A stretch of DNA of 64,000 bases from Candidatus Magasanikbacteria bacterium GW2011_GWC2_37_14 (GCA_000990355.1 LBSX01000007.1:441-64440), one strand, 5' to 3'. Numbered from the stretch's first letter, positions 1-55,620 are shown. Numbers and translations are program-made. Notes: generated by a model not told the origin, from the sequence alone.

Positions 1-1319
1 ACCTCAAACATCTTTGTTAAATCTCTTGTTTCAAGCTTCTCAGCCCTAGCTACTTCTGGTTTGGGTGGTTTGGCCAAAGTTTCTACTTGCAACGCCCCAT
101 CAACCACTTTATTTATCATTGGCAAAGTTTGTTTCTTTTTAGTACTAAAATCACCATCGCCAAAACACTGTTCATAAACTTTCGTAAAAAACTCGGCTTT
201 CTTTTCTGGAGGATGTTTACTCTTTTTAAAAATTGGATCTAATTTTGCTAAAATTTTGTTTAAATAATCTAAAAACCACTCCACATCTTTCCAAAGCACT
301 TTTTCATCCATTATCAATTGTGTTAATACTGTTTTAATATCCGGTGTATAACCCAAATATTCTTTTAATACTAAATAATCTTTATTTAAGGCTTGTTCCA
401 ACAATAACGCCCTTTCACTGGCAACTTCTACAATGGGTGCTTTTGCCTCTGCCACCACAATTTTTGGTTGTTGTTCTTTAACAACAGGCCTTGTTGGCAC
501 AGGTTCTTTTTTAATATCAGGCTTTCGATAAATTCTCCCTTCTGGAGGTTTTTTAAATTCTAACTGTCCAATATAATAAGTTCTAGCAAAATTTGCAGGG
601 TTAGAGGCTTCACCGGTCATTTTTATTTTATTATCATCACCAACAGCTAAAATTGTTCCTTCTAAATAATTTAATTTTGGATCATCTCGCCGAATGGGTG
701 GTATATAAGCCATAACAATTTCACCAGCTCTTACACGATTACGCAAAATATCAATTGGCGCTTCTGGCAAAACCAGTCTTTCTCTAGCTGGCAACTTTTT
801 TTCTACTCTTATCTGTGGTTCAAATGCCTTTGCTGCTGGTTCAATAACCTTTTCTTCAACTTTTGCTTCCACTTTAACTACTGGTTTTGGAACAACCGGC
901 TCCACTACTGGCCTAACAACTTCCTCTACTACTGGTGCAACGACTTCTTTTTCTTCTGTTTCACTATTCAATTCCGCTTCATCTTTGTTTGCTCCCTTGC
1001 CAATACTAACATCCACTAATTTTTCTATATCTCCCATAGCTGCTTCTATTCGTCTTTCTTTTTCGTCAGCAGAAATAGCTTTTATACCTTCGGCCGCATT
1101 TCTATCTACCAATTCTTGTTGATCTCTACTTACTCCAATATTATATTGTCGCAATTCAATTTCCTCTTGACTGAGTGGTTTGGAAATACCCCAAAGTTTT
1201 CTCCAAGTAGATTTTAATCCTAATTTTTTATTGTGAGCACCCAAAACATCAGACGTTTCTACATCTGGCAAATTTTTACCATCTACAATATATCGTCGTT
1301 GGTTACCTTCTATTCCCAT
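1..1319 (-). CDS. hypothetical protein, 5'-complete and running off the window start. It has charged and Pro/Val/Glu-rich repeats and no recognised domain.
   Basis: Manual reverse-complement translation is open from an ATG at ~1319 to position 1. The N-terminus reads MGIEGNQRRYIVDGKNLPDV... The ORF track omits it because it has no stop inside the window. Confidence 0.5.
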   Translation of the reverse strand, partial: MGIEGNQRRYIVDGKNLPDVETSDVLGAHNKKLGLKSTWRKLWGISKPLSQEEIELRQYNIGVSRDQQELVDRNAAEGIKAISADEKERRIEAAMGDIEKLVDVSIGKGANKDEAELNSETEEKEVVAPVVEEVVRPVVEPVVPKPVVKVEAKVEEKVIEPAAKAFEPQIRVEKKLPARERLVLPEAPIDILRNRVRAGEIVMAYIPPIRRDDPKLNYLEGTILAVGDDNKIKMTGEASNPANFARTYYIGQLEFKKPPEGRIYRKPDIKKEPVPTRPVVKEQQPKIVVAEAKAPIVEVASERALLLEQALNKDYLVLKEYLGYTPDIKTVLTQLIMDEKVLWKDVEWFLDYLNKILAKLDPIFKKSKHPPEKKAEFFTKVYEQCFGDGDFSTKKKQTLPMINKVVDGALQVETLAKPPKPEVARAEKLETRDLTKMFE

Positions 1320-1366
1320 ACAAAAATATACTAATAATTCTAGCTTAATATTTTAAGCTATTTTTG

Positions 1367-4300
1367 TCAATCAACTATCTTTTCGGCTTCAGTCAATTTA
1401 ACCGATAATAAATGCGAGATGCCATCGGCTCCCATGGTTACGCCATAGAGCGCATCAGAGGCATGCATGGTAACTCGATTGTGAGTAATTACTACAAATT
1501 GTGATTGATTAGAAAGTTCCTGTAAAATTTTGGTAAAACGCAAAGTATTGGCTTCGTCTAGTGCGGCTTCTACTTCGTCCAAAACTACAAAAGGTGGCGG
1601 ATTGGTATGAAGAATGGCACAGACCAAAGCAATGGAGGCCAAAGTGCGTTCCCCTCCCGAAAGTGCTTGAATATTTTTAATTTTTTTGCCAGGTGGGCAA
1701 GCAATTACATCTACACCCAACAAAATTTGTTCTTTTTTATTTTTAGGTTTTGCATTTTCCTCTTCTTCATTTTCTAATTCATTATTTAAATCTTCTATAC
1801 TAATATTTGGGTCTTCGGCTAATTTACTTTCACCATACAATTCTACCAAATCAGCTTTGCCGCCATCGAATAATATTGCAAAATATCGCGAAAATTCTTT
1901 TTTAATTTGTTTAAAAGCCTTGTCGCGTTTTTTCTTCATTAATTCATCTAATTCTACAATCAAAGATTCCAAATCAGTTAAAGCTTTATTTAGGTCAGTT
2001 AATTGTGAATCTAAATATCCATAACGTTCCTTTGTTTCTTGGTATTCAGCCATTACTTCTTCATCAATTCCGCCAATCAAACTTAATTGATATTTTAATT
2101 TTTGAATTTTTTCTAGCGTTAATTCCATTTCCACAACTGGCAAAACTTCGGTACCACGTTCTTTTAAGGCAGTTAACTGGGTGTGTAATTCTTGATAAAC
2201 TTCGTTGCTTAAATCTTCTTGTTTAGTTTCCAATTTGGCCACCAAAACCTGCTTGTCGTTTTTCTTTTCGACAATTTTAGATAAGGCTGTTTGTTCTTCT
2301 TGCATGGCATCTTGCAAAGCAAAAATTCTTTGCTTTTTCTTTTCTTCACCTTCGTTAAATAATTTCATTTTTTCTTCCACTCCCAATAATTCTTTTTCTT
2401 TATTTTTGATTTCTTTTTCTACACCACTTTTTTGTTTTTCTACTTGGTGTAAATTTTCACTATACTCTTCTGGAGTCATGTTATGCACCGACAGTTCTTG
2501 TTGCAAAGCAGATAATTCTCTGGCTAATTCTTGCTTTTGTTCTCCAAAAACAGTTAAACGACCTACAGCAATTTGTTCACCAGACAACAAACTTTGTAAA
2601 TCAGTTTTGGCCAATTCATAATCTTTATCAACCAATTCTTCCTGCTTTTGATAAGTTAATATTTCTTCTTCTAAAGTAACCAAATCTGTACCCATTAAAT
2701 AGGGCGAATCGCCATAAGAAAAACTTAAACCACGAGCCCGTTCTTTTTTGCGATAACCGCCTTTTAAAGAACCCGACACTTCTACCACATCTCCCTCCAA
2801 AGTTACCATGCGAATCCGACCAATACCAATTTCTCGCGCCACATCCAAATTATCCACAATTAAAGTATTACCCAAAACATAAGAAAAAATATTATTAAAA
2901 CGACTATCAAATTTGGCCAATTCTACGGCCAAGCCATGCACCCCAGAACGGTTTTTTAATTCATTAATATCTTGTGAAACAATTCTTTGCCTAATTTTAT
3001 TGAGTGGCATAAAAGTGGCCACCCCCAATTCTTGAGCGCGCAAATATTCAATAGATTTTTGTGCAGTGCCGTCATTATCGACAACTACCGAAGAAAGATT
3101 GCCTCCAGCTGCCACGTCTAGTGCCAAACGATATTTTTCATCTACTTCGGCCAACTGCGCCACGGTGCCATACACTACACCCAAACGATGGCGCTCTTCT
3201 AGCACTGCTTGCACAGCTTTTAACCCAGAATATTGCATGTATGATTGTTCATTTTTTACTTGCAACATTTTTTGTTCGAGATTACCAATCTTGCCTTTAA
3301 TTTCGGTGTGCTCTAATAATTTTTCTTCTACTTCTTTTTTCTTTAACAAAATTTCTTCGGCATTTTTTTGCGAATTATTTTCTGCATCAGTTAGTTCTTT
3401 TTCCAAACGTGCCACTTCGCCTTCTAAATTATTAATTTTACTTTGAAGCCAGCCTACATTTTGCTTGCCAGCTTTGGAATATTCAGTTTGTAATTTCCCC
3501 ATTAAAACTGCTTTTTCACTTTCTAATAAATTTTTCTGTCTTAAAATTTCTTGATACTCTTTTTGTAAATTGGCAAATACTTCCTGACGCGATTCTTCGC
3601 GAGCCAAACGAGCCATTTCTTCTTGCACGGCCAATAACTTGGCATTACTTTCGGTATATTCTTTATTAAAAACTTTTAACTCTTGTTGTAAAACTTCTAA
3701 TTGAGTTTGATTGTAATAATATAATGTATAAAAATATTTCTCTTGACACTCACGTAATTGTATTTCCACTTCTTGACGTTGCTCTAATTTTTTTACTTGG
3801 CGCGACAAAGTGCGCAGTCGTGGTTCTACTTCGTTGAGTAAGGCAGTAGCCTGATCAATATTTTCTTTGGTATGATACAATTTTAAAGCGGCTTGATGGC
3901 GTTTAATTTGAAACTCTTTAATTCCACAGGCTTCATCAAAAAAATCCTTGCGTTCTTGTGGAGTTTGTAAAAGTAGTCGATCAATTGTACCCTGACCAAT
4001 TACACTATAAGCGCCTTGGCCAAATTGCGCTTTGGCCAAAAGTATTTGCAAATCAATCAACCGAACATTGTTGTTGTTTACCAAATATTCACTTTCTCCC
4101 GAACGATAAAAACGACGAGTAATTACTAATTCGTCATAATCAATTGGCACACGCTTATCGGCATTGTCCAAAATCATCGTTACTGCCGCCATGCCCATTT
4201 GCCCTTTGGAGTCAGATCCCGAAAAAATAATATCTTCACCTTTTTTACCACGCAACATTTTCATACTCTGTTCACCCATTACCCAGCGAATAGCATCGGA

Positions 4301-4441
4301 GATGTTACTTTTGCCCGCACCATTTGGCCCAACTACCGAAGTAACCGTATAACGGCCATCTTTGGCTTGAGGCAGAAATTCCAAAAAAGCCTTTTGTGCA
4401 AAAGACTTAAAACCATGTATTTCTAGACTTTTTAAATACAT
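1367..4441 (-). CDS. smc: chromosome segregation protein SMC
   Basis: Walker A GPNGAGKSN near the N-terminus, long coiled-coil arms, a central hinge, a C-terminal LSGGE signature and Walker B VVLDEVEAALD. The likely true start is MYLKSLEIHGFKSF, 12 codons inside the tracked ORF. Confidence 0.9.
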   Translation of the reverse strand: MYLKSLEIHGFKSFAQKAFLEFLPQAKDGRYTVTSVVGPNGAGKSNISDAIRWVMGEQSMKMLRGKKGEDIIFSGSDSKGQMGMAAVTMILDNADKRVPIDYDELVITRRFYRSGESEYLVNNNNVRLIDLQILLAKAQFGQGAYSVIGQGTIDRLLLQTPQERKDFFDEACGIKEFQIKRHQAALKLYHTKENIDQATALLNEVEPRLRTLSRQVKKLEQRQEVEIQLRECQEKYFYTLYYYNQTQLEVLQQELKVFNKEYTESNAKLLAVQEEMARLAREESRQEVFANLQKEYQEILRQKNLLESEKAVLMGKLQTEYSKAGKQNVGWLQSKINNLEGEVARLEKELTDAENNSQKNAEEILLKKKEVEEKLLEHTEIKGKIGNLEQKMLQVKNEQSYMQYSGLKAVQAVLEERHRLGVVYGTVAQLAEVDEKYRLALDVAAGGNLSSVVVDNDGTAQKSIEYLRAQELGVATFMPLNKIRQRIVSQDINELKNRSGVHGLAVELAKFDSRFNNIFSYVLGNTLIVDNLDVAREIGIGRIRMVTLEGDVVEVSGSLKGGYRKKERARGLSFSYGDSPYLMGTDLVTLEEEILTYQKQEELVDKDYELAKTDLQSLLSGEQIAVGRLTVFGEQKQELARELSALQQELSVHNMTPEEYSENLHQVEKQKSGVEKEIKNKEKELLGVEEKMKLFNEGEEKKKQRIFALQDAMQEEQTALSKIVEKKNDKQVLVAKLETKQEDLSNEVYQELHTQLTALKERGTEVLPVVEMELTLEKIQKLKYQLSLIGGIDEEVMAEYQETKERYGYLDSQLTDLNKALTDLESLIVELDELMKKKRDKAFKQIKKEFSRYFAILFDGGKADLVELYGESKLAEDPNISIEDLNNELENEEEENAKPKNKKEQILLGVDVIACPPGKKIKNIQALSGGERTLASIALVCAILHTNPPPFVVLDEVEAALDEANTLRFTKILQELSNQSQFVVITHNRVTMHASDALYGVTMGADGISHLLSVKLTEAEKIVD

Positions 4442-4509
4442 AATGGAAATATTATAGCACTCTTGACAAATTCCCACAATAGGATTATAATGGCTAGCTT
4501 GTAATATTT

Positions 4510-5493
4510 ATGGAAAGAACTGCCAAACAAATCCACAATTTAATTATCAATGCCCAAAACATTGTTTTGGTGCCCCACCAAAACCCCGACGGCGACGCTC
4601 TGGGGTCTGTTTCGTCTTTTTCCTATTATTTAATTAGTCTAAACAAAAGACACTATATTTTTTGTGCCACTCCTGCTTCTAGCAAATTACAAACTCTCCC
4701 CCATTTAATAGAACCTAATAATTCCTTAGAAATTTGGAAAACTCAGCCTGATTTAATTATTGTTTTGGATTCGGGCGATCTTAAATACGCGGGCATAGAC
4801 CAAATAATTAGCAATCTCACTCACGAATATTTAATTATAAATATTGATCACCATAATTCTAATACCAATTTTGGCCAGCATAATTTGGTAATAAAAAATG
4901 CTTCTGCCACGGCCGAAGTTTTGTATCATTTTTATAAATATAATAATATAAATATCGACAAAAACATGGCCTTGTCTCTCTTAACCGGTCTAATTACCGA
5001 CACCGACAACTTTACCAATGGTGCCACTAATACTAGTTCTTTAAAAATTGCTTCGGAACTTATTCACCGCGGAGCTAATTTTAATTTTCTTAAAAACTGG
5101 TTTATAAAAGATAAAAGTATTCTCGCTTTAAAACTTTGGGGTACCGTGCTTTCCCGTTTAAGTAAACACGAAGAATTGGATATTGTTTACACTTATCTTA
5201 CCAAAAATGATTTTAATAATTTGGAAATAAATGAAAATGAAATCGAAGGTATAGCTAATTTTTTAAATAATTTAGGCGAAGGCCGAGCTTCTTTAATTTT
5301 AAAGGAATTATCTAACAAAAAAATAAAAGGTAGTTTACGTACTACCAACGATAATATTGATGTTTCGGTAATTGCCAAAACTTTAGGCGGGGGTGGACAC
5401 AAAAAAGCTAGTGGCTTTGTACTCGAAGGTACACTAGAGGAAGTACTAAAAAAAGTTTGGGAAGCAGTTGCCAAGAGCGAAAAAAAGAAGTAA
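4510..5493 (+). CDS. nrnA: DHH-family phosphoesterase (NrnA-like oligoribonuclease / pAp phosphatase)
   Basis: Motifs HQNPDGDALGS, IDHH and a C-terminal GGGH (DHHA1) are present. Confidence 0.8.
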   Translation: MERTAKQIHNLIINAQNIVLVPHQNPDGDALGSVSSFSYYLISLNKRHYIFCATPASSKLQTLPHLIEPNNSLEIWKTQPDLIIVLDSGDLKYAGIDQIISNLTHEYLIINIDHHNSNTNFGQHNLVIKNASATAEVLYHFYKYNNINIDKNMALSLLTGLITDTDNFTNGATNTSSLKIASELIHRGANFNFLKNWFIKDKSILALKLWGTVLSRLSKHEELDIVYTYLTKNDFNNLEINENEIEGIANFLNNLGEGRASLILKELSNKKIKGSLRTTNDNIDVSVIAKTLGGGGHKKASGFVLEGTLEEVLKKVWEAVAKSEKKK

Positions 5494-5524
5494 AATAGTT
5501 AAGTAATCCTTAACTATTTTTTAT

Positions 5525-6124
5525 ATGTCTAACAAAGAAATACAAAATCAATATCTGATTCCCACCGTCATCGAAAAAACATCTTATGGCGAACGCGCCT
5601 ATGATATTTATTCCAGGTTGTTGAAAGACCGAATAATTTTTTTGGGCACAGCGATTGATGACGCCGTGGCCAATACCGTAATTGCCCAATTATTATTTTT
5701 GGCAAATCAAGATTCGGAAAAAGATATTAAAATTTATATCAATTCTCCTGGTGGTTCGGTTACAGCTGGTATGGCTATTTACGACACCATGCAATTTATA
5801 AAACCCGATGTTTCTACCACTTGCGTGGGTATGGCTGCTAGTATGGCTTCGGTACTCTTGGCTGCTGGCGCCAAAGGCAAACGTTTTTGTTTGCCAAATT
5901 CCGAAGTGATGATTCATCAAATTATGGGTGGTATGGAAGGTCAAGCCAGTGACATCAAAATTCATGCGGAAAGAATTTTAAAATTAAAAACTAAATTAAA
6001 TAATATTTTGGTAAAACACACTGGACAAACTTTGGAAAAAATTGACAAAGATACTGATCGTGATTATTTTATGACTGCCGAGGAAGCAGTAAAATATGGT
6101 TTGGTAGATAAGGTTATCGAATAG
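5525..6124 (+). CDS. clpP: ATP-dependent Clp protease proteolytic subunit
   Basis: 199 aa with [27 protein letters not shown] (active-site Ser) and MIHQIMGG. Confidence 0.95.
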
Positions 6125-6126
6125 TT

Positions 6127-6205
6127 TTTTTCCCTCCCCTATAAGGGGAGGCCCCTCGTAGGGGGAGGAAAATAAAAAACTGCGATTTATATCGCAGTTT
6201 TTTAT
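6127..6205 (+). terminator. compound terminator: two GC-rich palindromes (ccctcccctataaggggagg; cccctcgtaggggg) followed by hairpin aaaaaactgcgatttatatcgcagtttttt
   Basis: Inverted repeats read directly after the clpP stop. The last hairpin has T/A runs on both sides and is bidirectional. Confidence 0.7.
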
Positions 6206-6396
6206 TTTCAACTATTTATAATAATTTTACCCTCACACCTATGTATAGGTGTTGGGGTTTATAAACACTTGAGTCACCCTTGGTCCTCCAAGGCCAAGGT
6301 GCTCCTAAGTAATTAGGAAAAGATCGAAAAGAACGTAGATTGGTTGCCCCGGAGCTGGGGCGAGATAGACGGCTTGGCGCCATCAAGAACGGAAGG

Positions 6397-7257
6397 TTAT
6401 TCGTCGCTACACGCGTCACCAACCCCGTTGCCGTCGGCGTCGGCCTGATCGGGGTTGTAATCGCAATTGCAATTGTCGTCATAATCGTCAATACCATCAC
6501 CATCGGAATCCCCCCAGGGATCAGTGATAGAATGGGGGGCGTTGGGGCAATAGTCGCAAATATCACCCAATCCGTCGTGATCCGAATCTTTTTGACCGGG
6601 ATTGTATTCGTAACTATTATTGCAATTATCTTCATCATCTCGGACACCGTCGCCGTCGACATCGGAGTCGCACGCGTCGCCCACCCCATCGCCGTCGCCG
6701 TCGTTCTGTTTAAAATAATCCCAAGGTCTTTCGTCCCCCGGTCCCTGGAGCTCCTCGAAGTTATGTAGCGAACTACAGTGACCCCAATCATCTTCGGTTT
6801 CATTGCGACACCCCATCACGTCAAATATATTGGGGCAGTTGTCGCAAGCGTCGCCGATGCCGTCGCCGTCCATGTCACCCTGATCCAGGTTGTCAATGCC
6901 CGGGCAGTTGTCTTCTGCATCGGGCAGGCCGTCGTTGTCGTCGTCGGCTTCACAGGCATCGCCCACACCGTCGCCGTCAGCGTCGGCCTGATTGTGGTTG
7001 CTGATCTTGGGACAGTTATCGCAGGCGTCGCCAACACTATCGCCGTCAGCGTCGGCCTGGTCGTAGTTGTCCACGGTTGGACAGTTTTCACATTTGTCGC
7101 CCACGCCGTCGTAGTCAGTATCGACCTGCGCAGGGTTGGCGATCTGCTCGCAGTTGTCATCATAGTCCACGACGCCGTCGCCGTCCGTATCCGGGACTTC
7201 GCACGCCGCGAACAACAGGGCCGCCAGCACCAGCACAAACCAATCGCACTGCTTCAT
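6397..7257 (-). CDS. G+C-rich secreted lipoprotein-like protein built of thrombospondin type-3 (Ca-binding) repeats
   Basis: The ATG for MKQCDWFVLVLAALLFAAC (lipobox-like) is preceded by GGAGG. It has 8 or more repeats of D-x-D-x-DG-x-G-D-x-CD-NCP-x(3)-N-x-x-Q. Third codon positions are almost all G/C. Confidence 0.7.
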   Translation of the reverse strand: MKQCDWFVLVLAALLFAACEVPDTDGDGVVDYDDNCEQIANPAQVDTDYDGVGDKCENCPTVDNYDQADADGDSVGDACDNCPKISNHNQADADGDGVGDACEADDDNDGLPDAEDNCPGIDNLDQGDMDGDGIGDACDNCPNIFDVMGCRNETEDDWGHCSSLHNFEELQGPGDERPWDYFKQNDGDGDGVGDACDSDVDGDGVRDDEDNCNNSYEYNPGQKDSDHDGLGDICDYCPNAPHSITDPWGDSDGDGIDDYDDNCNCDYNPDQADADGNGVGDACSDE

Positions 7258-7285
7258 CACACCCTCCGAGCAAAAGGTTCGCCCA

Positions 7286-7324
7286 AAAGCACGCCCGTGC
7301 CTCCGAGCAAGAACAAGAACAGAA
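7286..7324 (-). promoter_or_regulatory. conserved ~40-nt 5' leader element, copy A (aaagcacgcccgtgcctccgagcaagaacaagaacagaa on the plus strand)
   Basis: Identical to copy B at 9753-9791. It lies 25-30 nt upstream of the start codon of the TSP3-repeat gene. Confidence 0.6.
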
Positions 7325-7366
7325 CCAAAACTAACGCAAAGCGCAAAACTAACTAAATTCAAACTA

Positions 7367-7413
7367 CCAGCTTTTTGTAGCTGGGACCTTTCATTGTCAA
7401 AGAGCGAGAAAAG
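7367..7413 (-). promoter_or_regulatory. upstream architecture copy A: hairpin ccagctttttgtagctgg plus box TTGTCAAAGAGCGAGAAAAG (read TCTCGCTCTTTGACAA on the coding strand)
   Basis: The same hairpin-plus-box arrangement recurs at 9820-9868 upstream of the second GC-rich gene. On the coding strand the box contains TTGACA. Confidence 0.45.
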
Positions 7414-7462
7414 AATACAACAATTATATGCTTTTCTCATTCTTTAAACAAAATTCATTTCT

Positions 7463-7510
7463 TCGAGGGGGAGCCGAACACGCTTTCCAGCATGTCAGCT
7501 CCCCCTCGTC
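7463..7510 (-). terminator. hairpin terminator of the Cys-rich protein gene (cgagggggagc ... gctccccctcg)
   Basis: An 11-bp perfect stem downstream of the stop at 7625, followed by a T-rich run on the minus strand. Confidence 0.6.
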
Positions 7511-7624
7511 CGCAGTGTATAGTTACCACCATTCCGATTACTCGGTTTAGTGAATTTAAATCTCAAAGATCAATTAGCATTTAATTATACAGAGCGCTTA
7601 CTCTGTGTTGTCTATATTTGTAAA

Positions 7625-9724
7625 TTAATTGCACCAGGGGTCGAGCTGGTTGCACTGCCCATCGTCCCAGTTGCACAGGGCGGTGCAGGGGTTGCCATCG
7701 GGCAGGCACTTGTCCTGGTACACGCACTGGCCCGTTTCCGGGTTGCACGACCCGTTCTGGCAATTGTTACTCTTGCAGGTGTCCTCCTGGTAATGACACC
7801 TGTTGTTCCAGATGTTGCATTCGCCCATGTACATCACCGACTTACCTGTAACGGTACAGACTCGAGTGCCCAAGGTCGGACACTCCTCATGGGTGTCACA
7901 GGCCTCACAGCCCGGCACCGGCAAGTTGGTGCAAGCACCATTCTTATAATCACAGGCGTCGTCTGTACAGGGTTCGCCGTCGTCACACTTTTCCTGGAAA
8001 GCACAACTTCCAGTTTCCGAGTTGCAATAACCAGTTCCACAGGCGTCCGAGGAGCAGACGTACTCGTGCGTACGGCACCTATGCCCCCAGGCCTCACATT
8101 CCCCCGTGTAGGAGATTGCCAAGGAGCTGCCCCCGCACATCTGCGTTCCCGACGACGGGCACTGTTCGTGGGTGTCGCAGGCCACGCAACCTGCGACGGT
8201 CAGGTTCGTGCACGCGCCCGTGCTGTCGTCGCACGAATCGTCGGTGCAGGGGTTCTCGTCGTCGCACTTGTCGTTCTGGATACACCCTCCTTTCGTCGGG
8301 TTGCACTCAGCGACCTGACACAGACCATAGGCCTGACAAACTACGCCCGGGTAAGTGCAGACATGGTCCACACACTTGTTGTCGGTGCAGGGGTTCTGGT
8401 CATCGCATTTGTAGTCCCCGTCGCACCAGATCGGGTCGTTTTCGCACCGGTAGCCATTCTGGACTTCTGCGTCCGGAATGCAGATCTGGCCACCCCAATC
8501 ACACCGTTTATTGTTGGAGCACTTGTTGCCGTCATCGCTCCATTCACAGTAATCGTCAGTACAGGGGTTCCCATCGTTGCAGTCGGCGGTCACAAGACAC
8601 GGCACACAGCCGACCGTTTCCCGACAGCGCAGGCCCTGCCCGCAGATGGCGTCCGACGCCTTGTGGGTGCACACGCACAGCGAACCCTGAGGCTCGGCGG
8701 CGTCGATCGTACAACCCACTTCGTCATCTTCGCACACTGGTGGCGCGTAAAAACACTTGTGATCGGGCCCGCAAATATCGCCCGTACAAGGGTTGCCGTC
8801 GTTGCAGTCGCCCTCGTCCAGGCAGCACCCGGGAATCTTCTCGTTCTGGCACCCCTTCCCCTCTTCGCAGAAGTCGTTGGTGCACTCGTTGTTGTCGTCG
8901 CACGACACCTGAGCCTGCCCGCAACCAAGGTACAATTCGCACTTGGCCTCGGTGCACACCGAGCTGTCGCTCGGGCACATGCCATCCATGGGCAAGTGCT
9001 GGCACAGCCCGTTGCTGTCGCATAAGTCGGTGGTGCAGTTGATGCCGTCGTCGCAATCGGTCTTGGTCTCGACGCATTGGCCGTCTACGCACGCCACGCT
9101 GGCACACTTGGACGACGCGATGCATTCCGAGAAACCGTTCCCACACTTGACTTTCTGATGGATGCAACCGATCCCAACGACACACATGTCGATGGTCGTG
9201 AGTTCGCCATCCTCGCACAGCACGGGAAAGAACTGGCAACCAACGCCGGTCACGCACTTGGCCTGGTTGCACTCGTCGCCCAAACCCAAGCACGCGTTCT
9301 CGTTGACGTGACTGAAGTTGCAACCGGTCGCCGGCAAGCACTCGTCGGCCGTGCACGGATCGTCATCGTTGCAGGTGAGCGCCTTCTGCTGGCACCCGGC
9401 CTGCAGATCGCACTCGTCCATGGTACACGCGTTGTTGTCGTTGCAGGCGACGTGGTTCGGGGTATGGTAACAGCTACCATTGTCGCACCGCTCGATGGTG
9501 CAGAGGATGCCGTCGTCGGCGCAGTCGCCATCGAAGTCACACTCGGACGGGTGATTGTCCACCTCCACCTTGTCGACTTCAGCGACCTCCTCCACCACCT
9601 CGACTTCCTGGGCCACGTCGGCCGTACCGCCGTTGCCCGTGTCCGACGTGTTGACGGAGACGCCGCACGTCACGGACACCAACGCCACCAGCACCAGCGC
9701 GAAGAACTTCACGAAGCGGTTCAT
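7625..9724 (-). CDS. G+C-rich secreted cysteine-rich repeat protein (~100 Cys; repeats C-x-D-D/N-x-N-x-C-T-x-D-x-C resembling the Myxococcus cysteine-rich repeat family)
   Basis: The ATG for MNRFVKFFALVLVALVSVTCG (signal peptide) is preceded by GGAGG. Repeated motifs include CNDGNPCTDDYC, CDDQNPCTDNKC, CDDENPCTDDSCD and CDDGEPCTDDACD. The plus-strand ORFs here are antisense artefacts. Confidence 0.7.
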   Translation of the reverse strand: MNRFVKFFALVLVALVSVTCGVSVNTSDTGNGGTADVAQEVEVVEEVAEVDKVEVDNHPSECDFDGDCADDGILCTIERCDNGSCYHTPNHVACNDNNACTMDECDLQAGCQQKALTCNDDDPCTADECLPATGCNFSHVNENACLGLGDECNQAKCVTGVGCQFFPVLCEDGELTTIDMCVVGIGCIHQKVKCGNGFSECIASSKCASVACVDGQCVETKTDCDDGINCTTDLCDSNGLCQHLPMDGMCPSDSSVCTEAKCELYLGCGQAQVSCDDNNECTNDFCEEGKGCQNEKIPGCCLDEGDCNDGNPCTGDICGPDHKCFYAPPVCEDDEVGCTIDAAEPQGSLCVCTHKASDAICGQGLRCRETVGCVPCLVTADCNDGNPCTDDYCEWSDDGNKCSNNKRCDWGGQICIPDAEVQNGYRCENDPIWCDGDYKCDDQNPCTDNKCVDHVCTYPGVVCQAYGLCQVAECNPTKGGCIQNDKCDDENPCTDDSCDDSTGACTNLTVAGCVACDTHEQCPSSGTQMCGGSSLAISYTGECEAWGHRCRTHEYVCSSDACGTGYCNSETGSCAFQEKCDDGEPCTDDACDYKNGACTNLPVPGCEACDTHEECPTLGTRVCTVTGKSVMYMGECNIWNNRCHYQEDTCKSNNCQNGSCNPETGQCVYQDKCLPDGNPCTALCNWDDGQCNQLDPWCN

Positions 9725-9752
9725 CGTATCCTCCGAACGAACGTGTGGTCTC

Positions 9753-9791
9753 GAAAGCACGCCCGTGCCTCCGAGCAAGAACAAGAACAGA
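9753..9791 (-). promoter_or_regulatory. conserved ~40-nt 5' leader element, copy B
   Basis: Identical to 7286-7324. It lies ~30 nt upstream of the ATG of the Cys-rich gene. Confidence 0.6.
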
Positions 9792-9819
9792 AACCGGCAC
9801 AAAAACAACACCAAAATTA

Positions 9820-9868
9820 ACCAGCTTAAATGGCTGGATTAGCTAGGTTGTCAAAGAGCCGAGAAAAA
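9820..9868 (-). promoter_or_regulatory. upstream architecture copy B: hairpin ccagcttaaatggctgg plus box TTGTCAAAGAGCCGAGAAAAAA
   Basis: Paralogous to 7367-7413. The hairpin is followed on the coding strand by a U-rich tract, which is attenuator-like. Confidence 0.45.
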
Positions 9869-9920
9869 ATAATTTTATTACTCTTTCTTCGCTCTTTGGC
9901 TAAATTTTCTTTAACAGCAG

Positions 9921-9949
9921 ATTGTAACAAACAAATGTCTGTTTGTCAA
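9921..9949 (-). promoter_or_regulatory. consensus sigma70-type promoter, TTGACA-17-TACAAT on the minus strand, pointing at the Cys-rich gene
   Basis: Read on the reverse complement: ttgacaaacagacatttgtttgttacaat. Confidence 0.5.
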
Positions 9950-10022
9950 TAGCTAACTGTGTACAACCAAAAAACAATTTGGCTAAAACAAGCCAAATTT
10001 TACCTTTATACACAGCCCCCTC

Positions 10023-30131: not shown

Positions 30132-30947
30132 TTATTTAGTTTCTGGTAATTCAAAAATTTTTCCAAGGCCCGTTGGACTATAACCATTTTTTACTTCTGC
30201 TCCATCCAAATAATTATCACCATCACTGTCTGGATTAAGTGGATTGGTTTTCCAAATAATTACCTCATCACCATCACTTAATTCATCTTTATCTGTATCC
30301 CAATTATTGGGATCTGTACCAATTTCTACTTCTCTGGTATCATCCAGGCCGTCTCCATCTTTGTCAATTGGTTCACCAAAAAGCACTTGATCATCGGTTA
30401 TTTGTGAACCAATATCAGTAACAGTGTTATTTTCATTCCCAGTATTAACCACAGTATTATTATTTGCTTCTATTTGATTATTATCTATGTTATTAGTTGT
30501 ATCGGCAGTATTATTTTCCACCACAGCTGGTTGGTTAGAATTAATATATTTATTATAAGCCCACCAACCTCCCATTCCCAAACCACCCACAACCAAAACA
30601 ATCACCAACAAAGTAATAATTACTCTAGTGACTACTGGTTCTTTCAAATCATAGTTTTCTGTTGATTTAATAATTGGTGGAGTAGTTTCTTCTGGCATTG
30701 CCGAAAAAGACGGTCTACTAACCGGTATTTCTACATTATTAACTTCTGGCTGAACTTTTGGAGTAAGCACCCCCGCAGCCAAAGCACTGTTCCCTGCTCC
30801 TGGTTCCAGAGTAACTTCGTTTTCTTCGGTAGCAACCCCAGAAAACATATCTTCGGGCTCGCCTTGACCAAATGGAACAGGCTCGCCTACTGGCAAATTG
30901 CCAGGAATTCCCGAGGGATTTTTGGTATTGATTGGTTCATCAAACAT
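30132..30947 (-). CDS. membrane-anchored protein with TSP3-like repeats (paralog 2)
   Basis: DKDGDGLDDTREVEIGTDPNNWDTDKDELSDGDE...DSDGDNYLDGAEVKNGYSPTG. Confidence 0.6.
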   Translation of the reverse strand: MFDEPINTKNPSGIPGNLPVGEPVPFGQGEPEDMFSGVATEENEVTLEPGAGNSALAAGVLTPKVQPEVNNVEIPVSRPSFSAMPEETTPPIIKSTENYDLKEPVVTRVIITLLVIVLVVGGLGMGGWWAYNKYINSNQPAVVENNTADTTNNIDNNQIEANNNTVVNTGNENNTVTDIGSQITDDQVLFGEPIDKDGDGLDDTREVEIGTDPNNWDTDKDELSDGDEVIIWKTNPLNPDSDGDNYLDGAEVKNGYSPTGLGKIFELPETK

Positions 30948-30988
30948 ATAATTGTCCTGTCATTCCCGCGCAGGCGGGAATCTAAAAA

Positions 30989-31393
30989 TTATTTAACTAA
31001 TTTACCTGCACCTAATGGATTATAATTATTAATAATTTCATAGCCATCCCAATAGCCATCGTCATCAGTGTCTACCTTTGTTGGATCAGTTTTATAAACT
31101 TCTATTTCTTCTTTATCAGTTAAACTATCACCATCAGTATCAGAATCACGATTACTAGTGCCAATTTCTTTTTCTTTGGTATCCAAAATTCCGTCACCAT
31201 CCAAATCATTGGGATCTAATTTTAATTTTTCAAAAACTACTGTTTCCACTGGCTTAATTTTATTATCTAATACTACATTATTTTTATTCCTTAAAAGTAG
31301 CCAAAAACCAGCCAAGATTCCTGCTCCCAGTATTAAAACCAATAAACTAATTAAAATAATTCTTTTCATATTATTTTTTAAGTAGTAGGACAA
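30989..31393 (-). CDS. membrane-anchored protein with TSP3-like repeats (paralog 3)
   Basis: LDGDGILDTKEKEIGTSNRDSDTDGDSLTDKEE...DTDDDGYWDGYEIINNYNPLG. Its first codons overlap the end of the giant gene. Confidence 0.6.
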   Translation of the reverse strand: MSYYLKNNMKRIILISLLVLILGAGILAGFWLLLRNKNNVVLDNKIKPVETVVFEKLKLDPNDLDGDGILDTKEKEIGTSNRDSDTDGDSLTDKEEIEVYKTDPTKVDTDDDGYWDGYEIINNYNPLGAGKLVK

Positions 31394-53271: not shown

Positions 53272-55620
53272 CTACAACTCATCCAAGTCTTTTAAAAAGC
53301 TTACCACATTATTTCGTACTTTCGCACTATTCGTAATTTGCACATCATTGTCATCCTCACTCACATATTCTATTTCATCTTGTCCTGAGCTTGCCGAAGG
53401 GTCGTCGCCAAACACTGTTCCGCCATTCATTTCACTCTTACCCGCCTGCCATGACTTACCGACAGACATGTCGGGCAGGTCCAATAACTCATTATTTAAT
53501 TCTTCCAAAAACAAACTTGGAGTAGCCAGTACGTCGCCCCAACCACTAGTGAGTGAATAGGTAAGCTGTAAATATTTTTTAGCCCGAGTTACTGCCACAT
53601 AAAACAAACGTCGTTCTTCTTCCAAGCCTCCATTTTCCCGCAAAGCCCGGTCATTGGGGAATTGGCCATTGGTTAAGCCAATAATAAAAACTGCTTCCCA
53701 TTCCAACCCTTTGGCTTGGTGAATGGTAGACAAAACAACTTTGTCGCCACCTCGCTGTAGAGACGCAAAATTTTGCGTCTCTACGTTTGTGTCAACCCGC
53801 CGAAACGACTCTTGTAAAGTTGCCTCTGCTAAAAATGTGTTTAAATCCGGTTGTTGTTTGGCAAACCCAGCTAATTGTTGTAAATCTTCCATTCGTTCGC
53901 GATAATCTGGATATTCATTTTCCAAATATTCAATATATTTTGATTCCAAAATTTGTAAAATTAAATCACTTGGTTTCCCTCCTGCTGATTTCCCTCCCCT
54001 TGTAGCCTTCGCCGTGAGCTCAGGCCGAACGGGGGAGGGTGGGGTGGGGTCTGCATCAACAACTAACATTAATTTCTCATAAATCTGTAAAAAATCATTC
54101 CAGCCTATTTGCGCTTTGGCAGATAATGTAGCTCCTATCTCTCGTAAGTTCCCTCCCCTATGAGGGGAGGGTGGGGTGGGGTTTGTCTCGTCCGAAACCC
54201 CCTCCTCTCCTCCCCCTTGTAGGGGGAGGGACATAATTTTTTCAATAATACGTTCAGCACTCACCGCCCCAATCCCCACTTGCATATTTAATACTCTTCG
54301 CCAAGCCACGTTATCTTCAATATTATTAATAATTCGCAAATATGCCAAAGCATCTTTAATATGCGCCCGTTCAAAAAACCGCACTCCACCACGATAATCA
54401 TAATCAATCCCCCGCTTTACTAATTCCATTTCCAAAGCTTGGCTGTGATAAGCTGCTCTAAACAACACGGCAATTTTACTTGGCTCCACTCCTTCGCTCT
54501 CTAATTCAAAAATACGATTAGCAATATATTCTGCTTCTTCTTTTTGATCGGCAAAAGCTTGCAATTCTGGCTTGGCAAATTTTTCTTTTATGCTTTTTAA
54601 CTTTTTTTCGTATTGATTTAAATTATTACTAATTACATTGTTTGCTAAATCCAAAATATTGGGTGTAGAACGATAATTAGTTTCGAGCTTAAATACTTTT
54701 GCATCTGGGTATCTGCCCTCTCCGCCAAAAGCGGATCCGTCTTTGGCAGAGAATGATAAAATATTTTGAATATCCGCCGCACGAAAAGAATAAATACTTT
54801 GGGCATCATCACCCACTACCAATAAATTTTTGTGCTTTGATGCCAACAAATCAATAATCGAAGCTTGAATTTTATTGGTGTCTTGATATTCATCTACCAA
54901 AATATATTGAAATTGTTCGGCTAACTTATTTTTTATTCCTTGTTCCTTTACCAAGAGCAAATACCAATTCACCAACAAATCATCAAAATCCATCGCATTA
55001 GCTTCTTGTTTGCGTTTGGCATAATCCTCAGCAATGCGCACAATTGTTTCCGATACCGACAAAAAATGTTCATATTTTAAATCCAAGACATCTTCAATGG
55101 TCATTTCACTATTCCTAGCATAAGAAATAATTGATTGTAATACAGCTGGCGAAGGAAATCTTTTTTCTGTGCGATCAATTCCCTCTTGTTTTAAACACAA
55201 TTTAATTAAAGCCAAACTATCTTCACTATCCAAAACAGAAAAATTATTTTTATAGCCTAAAAGCAAAGCATATTTTTTTAGCAATCGATAACCAATATGA
55301 TGAAACGTCCCCGACCACTGCAGGTGTGTCCCCCTCTTGACCTCGAGGGGACCAGGGGGAGTTGCCGAGGTTAAGTCTGAATCAACTAAATTCATCACCC
55401 TCTCAATCATTTCTTTGGCCGCCTTGTTGGTAAAAGTTACTAACAAAATATTTTCTGGTTTTATACCCTGTTCCAGCAAATACGCCACGCGATAAGTAAT
55501 GGTGCGGGTCTTGCCACTACCTGCTCCGGCCAATACCAAACATGGGCCATCGCCCTCATACACAACTTTTAATTGTTCGACATTTAATTCTTTTTTAAAA
55601 TCAATCATATTAGTCGTCAT
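53272..55620 (-). CDS. UvrD/PcrA-family ATP-dependent DNA helicase carrying multiple in-frame GC-rich palindromic insertions
   Basis: Motifs I GAGSGKTRTIT, Ia TFTNKAAKEM, II DEYQDTN, III GDDAQSIYSFRAAD, V/VI VLSTIHQAKGLEWEAVFIIGL and RRLFYVAVTRAKKYLQL. Extra Pro/Gly-rich segments (e.g. DLTSATPPGPLEVKRGTHLQ, NPTPPSPHRGGN, DPTPPSPVRPELTAKATRGGKSAGGKP, VETQNFASLQ, SASSGQDE) coincide with palindromes. Confidence 0.9.
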   Translation of the reverse strand: MTTNMIDFKKELNVEQLKVVYEGDGPCLVLAGAGSGKTRTITYRVAYLLEQGIKPENILLVTFTNKAAKEMIERVMNLVDSDLTSATPPGPLEVKRGTHLQWSGTFHHIGYRLLKKYALLLGYKNNFSVLDSEDSLALIKLCLKQEGIDRTEKRFPSPAVLQSIISYARNSEMTIEDVLDLKYEHFLSVSETIVRIAEDYAKRKQEANAMDFDDLLVNWYLLLVKEQGIKNKLAEQFQYILVDEYQDTNKIQASIIDLLASKHKNLLVVGDDAQSIYSFRAADIQNILSFSAKDGSAFGGEGRYPDAKVFKLETNYRSTPNILDLANNVISNNLNQYEKKLKSIKEKFAKPELQAFADQKEEAEYIANRIFELESEGVEPSKIAVLFRAAYHSQALEMELVKRGIDYDYRGGVRFFERAHIKDALAYLRIINNIEDNVAWRRVLNMQVGIGAVSAERIIEKIMSLPLQGGGEEGVSDETNPTPPSPHRGGNLREIGATLSAKAQIGWNDFLQIYEKLMLVVDADPTPPSPVRPELTAKATRGGKSAGGKPSDLILQILESKYIEYLENEYPDYRERMEDLQQLAGFAKQQPDLNTFLAEATLQESFRRVDTNVETQNFASLQRGGDKVVLSTIHQAKGLEWEAVFIIGLTNGQFPNDRALRENGGLEEERRLFYVAVTRAKKYLQLTYSLTSGWGDVLATPSLFLEELNNELLDLPDMSVGKSWQAGKSEMNGGTVFGDDPSASSGQDEIEYVSEDDNDVQITNSAKVRNNVVSFLKDLDEL
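53757..53784. repeat. palindromic element, family GTAGAGACGCA...TGCGTCTCTAC (copy inside the helicase CDS)
   Basis: gtagagacgcaaaattttgcgtctctac. A second copy, gtagagacgcattgcaatgcgtctctac, is intergenic at 61055-61082. Confidence 0.7.

Follow-up and report, generated by a model that had tools for sequence, protein, structure and literature searches.

A shared structured leader upstream of two GC-rich secreted-protein genes in a Candidatus Magasanikbacteria genome

A conserved 5' module placed before variable surface-protein genes is a known type of arrangement, and we describe here an instance from a 64,000-nucleotide stretch of DNA (the window) of Candidatus Magasanikbacteria bacterium GW2011_GWC2_37_14 (contig US42_C0007), a Rifle aquifer (groundwater) organism identified as the host via clpP and vanW. 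Two adjacent genes for secreted proteins, one with TSP3 repeats and one Cys-rich, share a structured leader built around a perfectly repeated 39-nt element, and the content of this leader is richer than a first-pass annotation of the stretch had described. In Borrelia hermsii, the vmp genes' upstream homology sequence (UHS) spans the 5' untranslated region (UTR), the ribosome-binding site (RBS) and the first codons of the lipoprotein gene, and an extragenic downstream homology sequence (DHS) carries inverted repeats; UHS and DHS are the crossover points for replacement of whole open reading frames (ORFs) that are otherwise unrelated (PMC6011951). At our locus, the leader with its signal-peptide codons and a conserved 3' flank (6210-6396, minus strand) likewise bracket a swap of non-homologous ORFs. 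Unlike in the vmp system, the swap is seen between lineages and not within a clone, neither a silent-cassette archive nor a single expression site emerged from the window or the collections scanned, and both genes carry the leader, in tandem on the chromosome and with about 150 nt of structured sequence upstream.

The vpma and vsp genes of Mycoplasma agalactiae and Mycoplasma bovis, small-genome bacteria living attached to other cells, combine a highly conserved 5' UTR and signal peptide with mature parts that lack homology, and their recombination sites lie at -1 to -72 in the 5' UTR (PMC2268961). A conserved 5' UTR and signal peptide also precede unrelated mature proteins here. The Mycoplasma genes, however, undergo Xer-type site-specific inversions that involve one promoter and oppositely oriented genes, whereas at our locus no recombinase was found nearby, both genes and their leaders lie on the minus strand, and only two copies are known.

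At the RNA level, hairpins that sequester a Shine-Dalgarno (SD) sequence, together with anti-anti-SD elements, control translation in riboswitch expression platforms and RNA thermometers. One pyrimidine-rich arm of our leader similarly has two exclusive predicted pairings, with a decoy SD or with the true one, but no ligand-binding or sensor domain was identified and there is no Rfam match. JUMPstart/ops, a 39-bp leader element of horizontally acquired polysaccharide operons, acts with RfaH, and LoaP acts with a leader hairpin. Our locus shares with JUMPstart/ops a short invariant 5' leader element on several laterally acquired surface-structure genes; it differs in host phylum, no RfaH-like factor was identified, and the ops motif GGCGGTAG is absent from the leaders (no match in 7258-7460 or 9725-9950, even with one mismatch). 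Unlike integron cassettes, the two ORFs have their shared elements on the 5' side and unrelated 3' flanks, and no integrase was found in the window.

A duplicated 5' module with three predicted hairpins

The window is AT-rich (about 35% GC), and its minus strand reaches 55-60% GC at 6397-9800. This GC-rich island, located between clpP and vanW, consists of two genes: a TSP3-repeat putative lipoprotein gene (6397-7257, minus strand, 286 aa; Pfam TSP_3, E 2.9e-40) and a Cys-rich repeat (Dicty_CTDC) secreted-protein gene (7625-9724, minus strand, 699 aa; Pfam E 1.7e-31). Their GC content at third codon positions (GC3) is 0.65 and 0.79, respectively, as against 0.20-0.33 in neighbouring genes, and both products begin with a hydrophobic signal ending in Cys. 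Pfam E-values, GC3 and N-terminal signals together confirm the first-pass description of GC-rich genes for secreted TSP3 and Cys-rich products. The island is 100% identical in four independent assemblies from different samples and is thus not an assembly chimera or artefact. As clpP directly adjoins vanW in other relatives (L012-L019 and L022), where the island is absent, the island represents an insertion.

Ahead of each gene lies the 39-mer TTCTGTTCTTGTTCTTGCTCGGAGGCACGGGCGTGCTTT, of which the window contains exactly two copies (7286-7324 and 9754-9792, both minus strand); the first-pass annotation had correctly seen an identical element in both leaders, with the coordinates of the second copy off by one. 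The chance expectation for such an element in the window is none, even with three mismatches allowed. It is the core of a duplicated 5' module of about 250 nt that extends from a long hairpin, H1, to the signal-peptide codons, in the order H1, H2, U/G-rich spacer, 39-mer with H3, SD, ATG and signal-peptide codons. The series noted earlier (box, CCAGC hairpin, 39-mer, GGAGG, ATG) does stand in the same order before both genes. It had also been cautioned that the repeat might simply belong to a longer duplicated segment with coding sequence in it, and this is partly the case, as the 3' end of the module is a signal-peptide coding repeat (7195-7239, minus strand, 76% identical to 9659-9703). Outside the 39-mer the aligned module is about 61% identical between copies, and a perfect 39-nt run has a P of about 7e-7 under uniform divergence.

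Each 39-mer contains a (G)UUCUU-repeat pyrimidine tract and a decoy GGAGG (7300-7304 and 9768-9772), followed after 7 nt by a GUG (7290-7292 and 9758-9760). The true SD, again GGAGG, and the ATG occupy 7263-7267 and 7255-7257 for the TSP3 gene, and 9730-9734 and 9722-9724 for the Cys-rich gene, where UUCGGAGG repeats the 5' arm of H3; both pairs are on the minus strand. GenBank extends the two ORFs through the leader (KKQ27614.1, 347 aa, 6397-7440; KKQ27615.1, 729 aa, 7625-9814), and both frames are indeed open through it, yet that the leader is coding seems to us scarcely credible. The identical 39-mer is read in different frames by the two annotated ORFs (SVLVLARRHGRAF versus LFLFLLGGTGVLS), the homologous signal peptides (beginning MNRFVKFFALVL and MSQFVKFFAMVL) start at the downstream ATG with its own GGAGG 5 nt upstream, and the leader-encoded peptide retrieved, among 1.84 billion representative proteins, only itself and one low-complexity false match. 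In L006, a related locus compared below, the homologous signal peptide starts at the ATG equivalent to that of the Cys-rich gene. There and in gene 1, the GUG opens a frame of 11-12 codons that stops on the gene's own ATG (UGAUG, AUGA; the gene-1 upstream ORF has 11 codons and ends in UGAUG), and in gene 2 the same GUG lies in frame, where one gene caller took it as the start of a 711-aa product. Judged from the sequence, the module is non-coding up to the ATG, and both genes are misannotated at their 5' ends in the public records. One ENA assembly (L007) calls long antisense ORFs, of 491 and 247 aa, inside the GC-rich gene.

Both leaders are predicted to fold into one and the same series of three hairpins (z -2.5 and -3.5), in support of the earlier view that the two genes share a structured non-coding leader. 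H1 is a 25-bp imperfect hairpin in copy 1 (7394-7451, minus strand; predicted free energy, dG, -19.4 kcal/mol, the unit used throughout) and a 20-bp AU-rich hairpin or inverted repeat in copy 2 (9852-9898, minus strand; dG -23.0). The box (7394-7417 and 9848-9871, with 79% identity across 24 nt) forms its 3' arm; it had been singled out as a separate motif or operator and, as part of a 20-25-bp hairpin, does not stand as one. The 5' arm of H1 is homologous between copies too, and the loop is not. In copy 1 a TATAAT in the apical part of H1, preceded by TTGTTT at a distance of 17 nt, may be a weak promoter. A TTGACA within the box was considered as a -35 element and rejected, since the box is predicted to pair within H1 and since copy 1 lacks a suitable -10 at a spacing of 16-18 nt. 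Leader copy 2 is preceded by a predicted, near-consensus sigma-70-type promoter, TTGACA-17-TACAAT (9921-9949, minus strand), which diverges from a perfect plus-strand promoter at 10023-10051; the first-pass annotation had called it perfect, and while the site is present, it matches 11 of 12 consensus positions.

H2 comprises CCAGC-N8-GCUGG in copy 1 (7367-7384, minus strand; dG -9.1) and CCAGC-N7-GCUGG followed by UUAAUUUUGG in copy 2 (9821-9837, minus strand; dG -6.8), the latter a weak terminator-like site. It had been proposed as an attenuator: in such a leader, perhaps riboswitch-like, H2 and its U-tract would end transcription early unless an alternative fold or a factor prevented it. With UUAAUUUUGG, the H2 of copy 2 and that of L006 are picked up by a simple terminator scan, H2 lies downstream of a strong predicted promoter, and among the leader copies compared, including L006, its stem is conserved and its loop variable. 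Yet the stem has 5-6 bp and a dG of -7 to -9, as against -17.0 and -22.6 for two bona fide terminators at the locus, and the copy-1 tail, UAGUUUGA, fails the U-tract criterion. No conserved antiterminator and no shared alternative fold around H2 appear in the predicted folds of both leaders, and Rfam returned no family in the leaders, whether at gathering score or with E allowed up to 10. The attenuator proposal does not hold up well against these observations, and we consider it improbable. A recruitment site for processive antitermination, or for another RNA- or DNA-binding factor that would allow the foreign genes to be expressed, strikes us as quite improbable. It would suit a short invariant leader element that heads horizontally acquired surface-protein genes, and at the DNA level H1 and H2 form palindromes whose arms are conserved and whose loops vary, but the 39-mer comes after the terminator-like H2 rather than before it, neither leader has an ops sequence, and no NusG paralogue or regulator was seen in Pfam scans of the window ORFs.

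Constraint, exchange and a possible switch

The 39-mer has no further copy in the window beyond the two. When its core 20-mer was compared with one genome per species, only three matches were found, all in coding regions of GC-rich genomes and hence chance matches, and neither half of the element matched viral contigs. A metagenome scan gave one true match, L006, although the collection missed even this organism's own contig, which makes the scan weak as a negative. L006 is the same locus in a related organism, with ClpP 94% identical, and shares with the window the Cys-rich gene, the intergenic region and, next to clpP, the 3' flank. Where the window has the TSP3 gene, however, L006 carries a Cys-rich ORF of 418 aa to which that gene shows no detectable similarity; the replaced interval is almost exactly that between the start codon and a point just beyond the stop codon. 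Two further contigs (L024 and L025) carry the vanW side of the organism of L006; the contigs of this close relative break just past vanW, so that the comparison is made without an orthologue of leader 2.

The L006 leader is a mosaic. It follows leader 1 through H1, leader 2 through H2 and the spacer (94.5% identity to leader 2 versus 53% to leader 1) and leader 1 once more after the 39-mer (95.5%), and it ends in a leader-2-like signal peptide. The points at which it switches are the box and the 39-mer, the two longest identical blocks, and the copies therefore recombine. Given this exchange of sequence, gene conversion alone could explain the perfect identity of the 39 nt.

Window and L006 are 94.8% identical, without gaps, over a 231-nt stretch running from the stop codon of the Cys-rich gene to the box; it takes in, together with H1, a conserved structured spacer between the genes (7452-7624, minus strand) with a hairpin A (7587-7608), a CCGA-GNRA-UCGG hairpin (7534-7545) and a GC-rich hairpin B (7464-7508, dG about -40). 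The pieces of the leader are likewise ungapped and 94.5-95.5% identical to L006, compared with 73.5-86.5% for coding DNA and 0.43-0.55 at four-fold sites in conserved codons. Over the whole intergenic/leader region of about 370 nt, identity between the two lineages is about 95%, the level of conservation changes abruptly at the stop codon of the upstream gene, and the module's rate of evolution is about one tenth of that at four-fold sites. Predicted pairs account for five of the 12 substitutions; pairing is kept in all five and broken in none, and the GNRA tetraloop differs between the lineages (GUAA to GCAA). As far as sequence comparison can tell, this looks like purifying selection acting on a structured RNA. 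Because the hairpins are shared, the constraint is unusual (about 95% versus 73-87% in coding DNA) and substitutions avoid predicted pairs, the common cis-acting role that had been suggested for the leader is likely.

A plainer account would make the leader a by-product, in which a promoter-proximal region, RBS and signal peptide were duplicated, a recent conversion tract made 39 nt identical, and nothing beyond ordinary expression signals is involved. Several observations fit it: the homology reaches into coding sequence, the mosaic L006 leader proves conversion between copies, the 39-mer is 39/39 identical between the paralogues in the window as opposed to 38/39 in L006, and there are no further copies in the searched data. 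We nevertheless regard it as unlikely, since the intergenic/leader region remains some 95% identical well beyond the conversion tract, set against about 50% at four-fold sites, and since the shift in conservation is sharp at the upstream stop codon and substitutions spare predicted pairs. A target for site-specific recombination, serving phase or antigenic variation as in the 5' UTRs of Mycoplasma vpma/vsp genes, appears very improbable. The conserved 5' UTR and signal peptide before unrelated mature proteins, the position of the 39-mer at -29 to -68 and the inversion of a neighbouring small-RNA gene relative to relatives would be in keeping with such a target. The copies, however, are direct and not inverted repeats, four assemblies from different samples have one fixed arrangement, and Pfam scans of the window ORFs (64 kb, the 3995-aa ORF excepted) revealed no recombinase, integrase or integron features.

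Instead, we favour, with moderate confidence, a model where the leader is a selected cis-acting RNA: it would give the genes their shared expression signals, be homogenised through gene conversion and double as an upstream homology anchor for ORF replacement. The leader would supply compositionally foreign genes with the signals they have in common, gene conversion would keep the module copies identical, and the leader upstream and the 3' flank downstream would serve as the two anchors for replacement of a whole ORF as a cassette. The 3' flank (about 190 nt) contains the inverted repeats CCTTGG..CCAAGG and CACCTAT..ATAGGTG, is followed by a bidirectional terminator at 6168-6209, and is common to the window, L006 (1902-2102) and L010 (4059-4160), whichever ORF precedes it. 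It is about 85% identical between the window and L006, with a core of about 95%; it may be a homology element on the downstream side, a structure of the 3' UTR or a small RNA.

It is possible, although we think it doubtful, that H3 provides a translational switch common to all leader-bearing genes. H3 is predicted as GCUCGGAGGCAC-GGGC-GUGCUUUUGGGC in copy 1 (7281-7308, minus strand; dG -19.5) and as CUCGGAGGCAC-GGGC-GUGCUUUCGAG in copy 2 (9750-9775, minus strand; dG -17.3), where it sequesters the decoy SD and the GUG; the consensus is CUCGGAGGCAC-GGGC-GUGCUUUYGRG. The hairpin is fully paired in the predicted folds of all three leaders, and its last pairs, which extend past the identical stretch, are kept via G-C/A-U to G-U differences. 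In the modelled switch, H3 (dG -17 to -19.5) would pair the decoy SD (CUCGGAGG) with the pyrimidine-rich anti-SD arm GUGCUUUYGRG, an arm whose sequence likewise complements the true SD (YUCGGAGG), 37 nt downstream. With H3 folded, the true ribosome-binding site would be open; were the decoy arm or the UUCUU-repeat tract occupied by a protein, an RNA or a 30S subunit, the anti-SD arm would be freed and would close the true site. When the decoy arm was blocked in silico, the anti-SD arm paired with the true SD in all three leaders. No antisense partner for the UUCUU repeats occurs elsewhere in the window, and pairing between the neighbouring candidate small RNA and the leaders was no better than in shuffled controls.

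Several points weigh against the model that we favour and against its extension to a switch. The alternative anti-SD pairing follows automatically from a duplicated SD-like sequence, and the default fold predicted for leader 1 already pairs part of the true SD. With no more than three leader copies, from two organisms, there is no double (compensatory) covariation for H1-H3. The candidate gene-1 promoter falls inside H1. The identity of 95% could reflect recent exchange of intergenic DNA between lineages instead of selection. Finally, no further copies, such as a cassette pool or archive would contain, turned up in the genome, metagenome, viral and protein collections.

Composition and surroundings of the island

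The composition of the island does not behave as that of a decaying transfer might. Between the Cys-rich orthologues (window 7625-9724, L006 3727-4653), four-fold identity is 0.49, a divergence about equal to that of host genes, and both keep a GC content at four-fold sites of 0.75-0.79. G/C interchanges make up 19 of their 43 four-fold differences, versus 2-4 in each host gene. Vertical inheritance under AT-biased mutation should have roughly halved the excess GC, which is not seen, so that the GC-richness was either kept up or brought in anew. The aquifer also harbours GC-rich Magasanikbacteria (GC3 about 0.67), which are plausible donors, but none of the compared loci has the leader. The nearest homologue of the Cys-rich protein (31% identity, L002) is not GC-rich and lacks the leader. 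The dN/dS of the Cys-rich gene, for the part that could be compared, is 0.09, the same as in housekeeping genes, so that this part gives no sign of diversifying selection.

In the island-free relative L022, the clpP-vanW spacer contains about 450 nt of GC-rich, non-coding and hairpin-rich DNA (about 8500-8940), which suggests that the spacer is a recurrent insertion hot spot. Next to the island lies a candidate small structured RNA (window 10023-10285, plus strand; L022 8296-8432 and L012 7338-7472, both minus strand; L027 about 4511-4768). Its perfect promoter, TTGACA-17-TATAAT (10023-10051), is followed by a long conserved UUCG-loop hairpin and a second hairpin (about 10150-10262) and then by a bidirectional terminator. 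Compensatory changes occur in 5 of 39 pairs among three sequences, and there is no Rfam match. In the island-bearing lineage the small RNA is inverted relative to clpP/vanW, and contigs of several assemblies (L024, L025 and L029) break at nearly the same point inside it.

A second GC-rich islet (13531-14661, minus strand) adjoins tRNA-Asp (14587-14661), the 3' end of which, with 8 nt more (GTCCGGTCCGCAAAATAAA), is directly repeated at 14579-14597 and 14390-14408 and resembles an integration scar. Downstream of it are a VKOR-family gene (14316-13909, GC3 0.67) and a basic 122-aa ORF (13899-13531, GC3 0.72). VKOR family proteins are linked to disulfide-bond formation, and such a gene would suit Cys-rich secreted proteins. 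REP-like palindromes (CCTCCCCTTATAGGGGAGG) recur in the genome, at 6135-6165, about 15680-15700 and about 54149-54170, and an extra 43 nt at 6151/6152 in three other assemblies of the same organism is their only difference from the window across the compared overlaps (within window 1-14647). The host also has Ca-binding-repeat surface proteins of its own, in that AT-rich native genes with bacterial TSP3 repeats (30132-31393, minus strand), which lack the leader, adjoin the giant ORF of 3995 aa.

Implications for surface-protein variation

Bacteria of the candidate phyla radiation have yet to be cultured; their genomes are tiny, and they are believed to live attached to other cells. It is tempting to speculate, although we would call it unlikely, that the locus is part of a plug-in system in which the conserved leader and 3' flank let a reduced, AT-rich genome swap in and express GC-rich, disulfide-rich adhesin ORFs. 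The leader RNA would then act as a common translational switch, and selection or biased gene conversion would actively keep the cargo GC-rich, its composition then not being the fading trace of a recent transfer. A foreign GC-rich composition that persists through about 50% four-fold turnover is hard to explain as simple post-transfer decay. The leader, for its part, is better conserved than the adjacent housekeeping genes, is common to unrelated secreted-protein genes, and lies at the exact edge of a whole-ORF replacement. The locus thereby offers a concrete, testable case for surface-protein variation and control in candidate-phyla-radiation bacteria.

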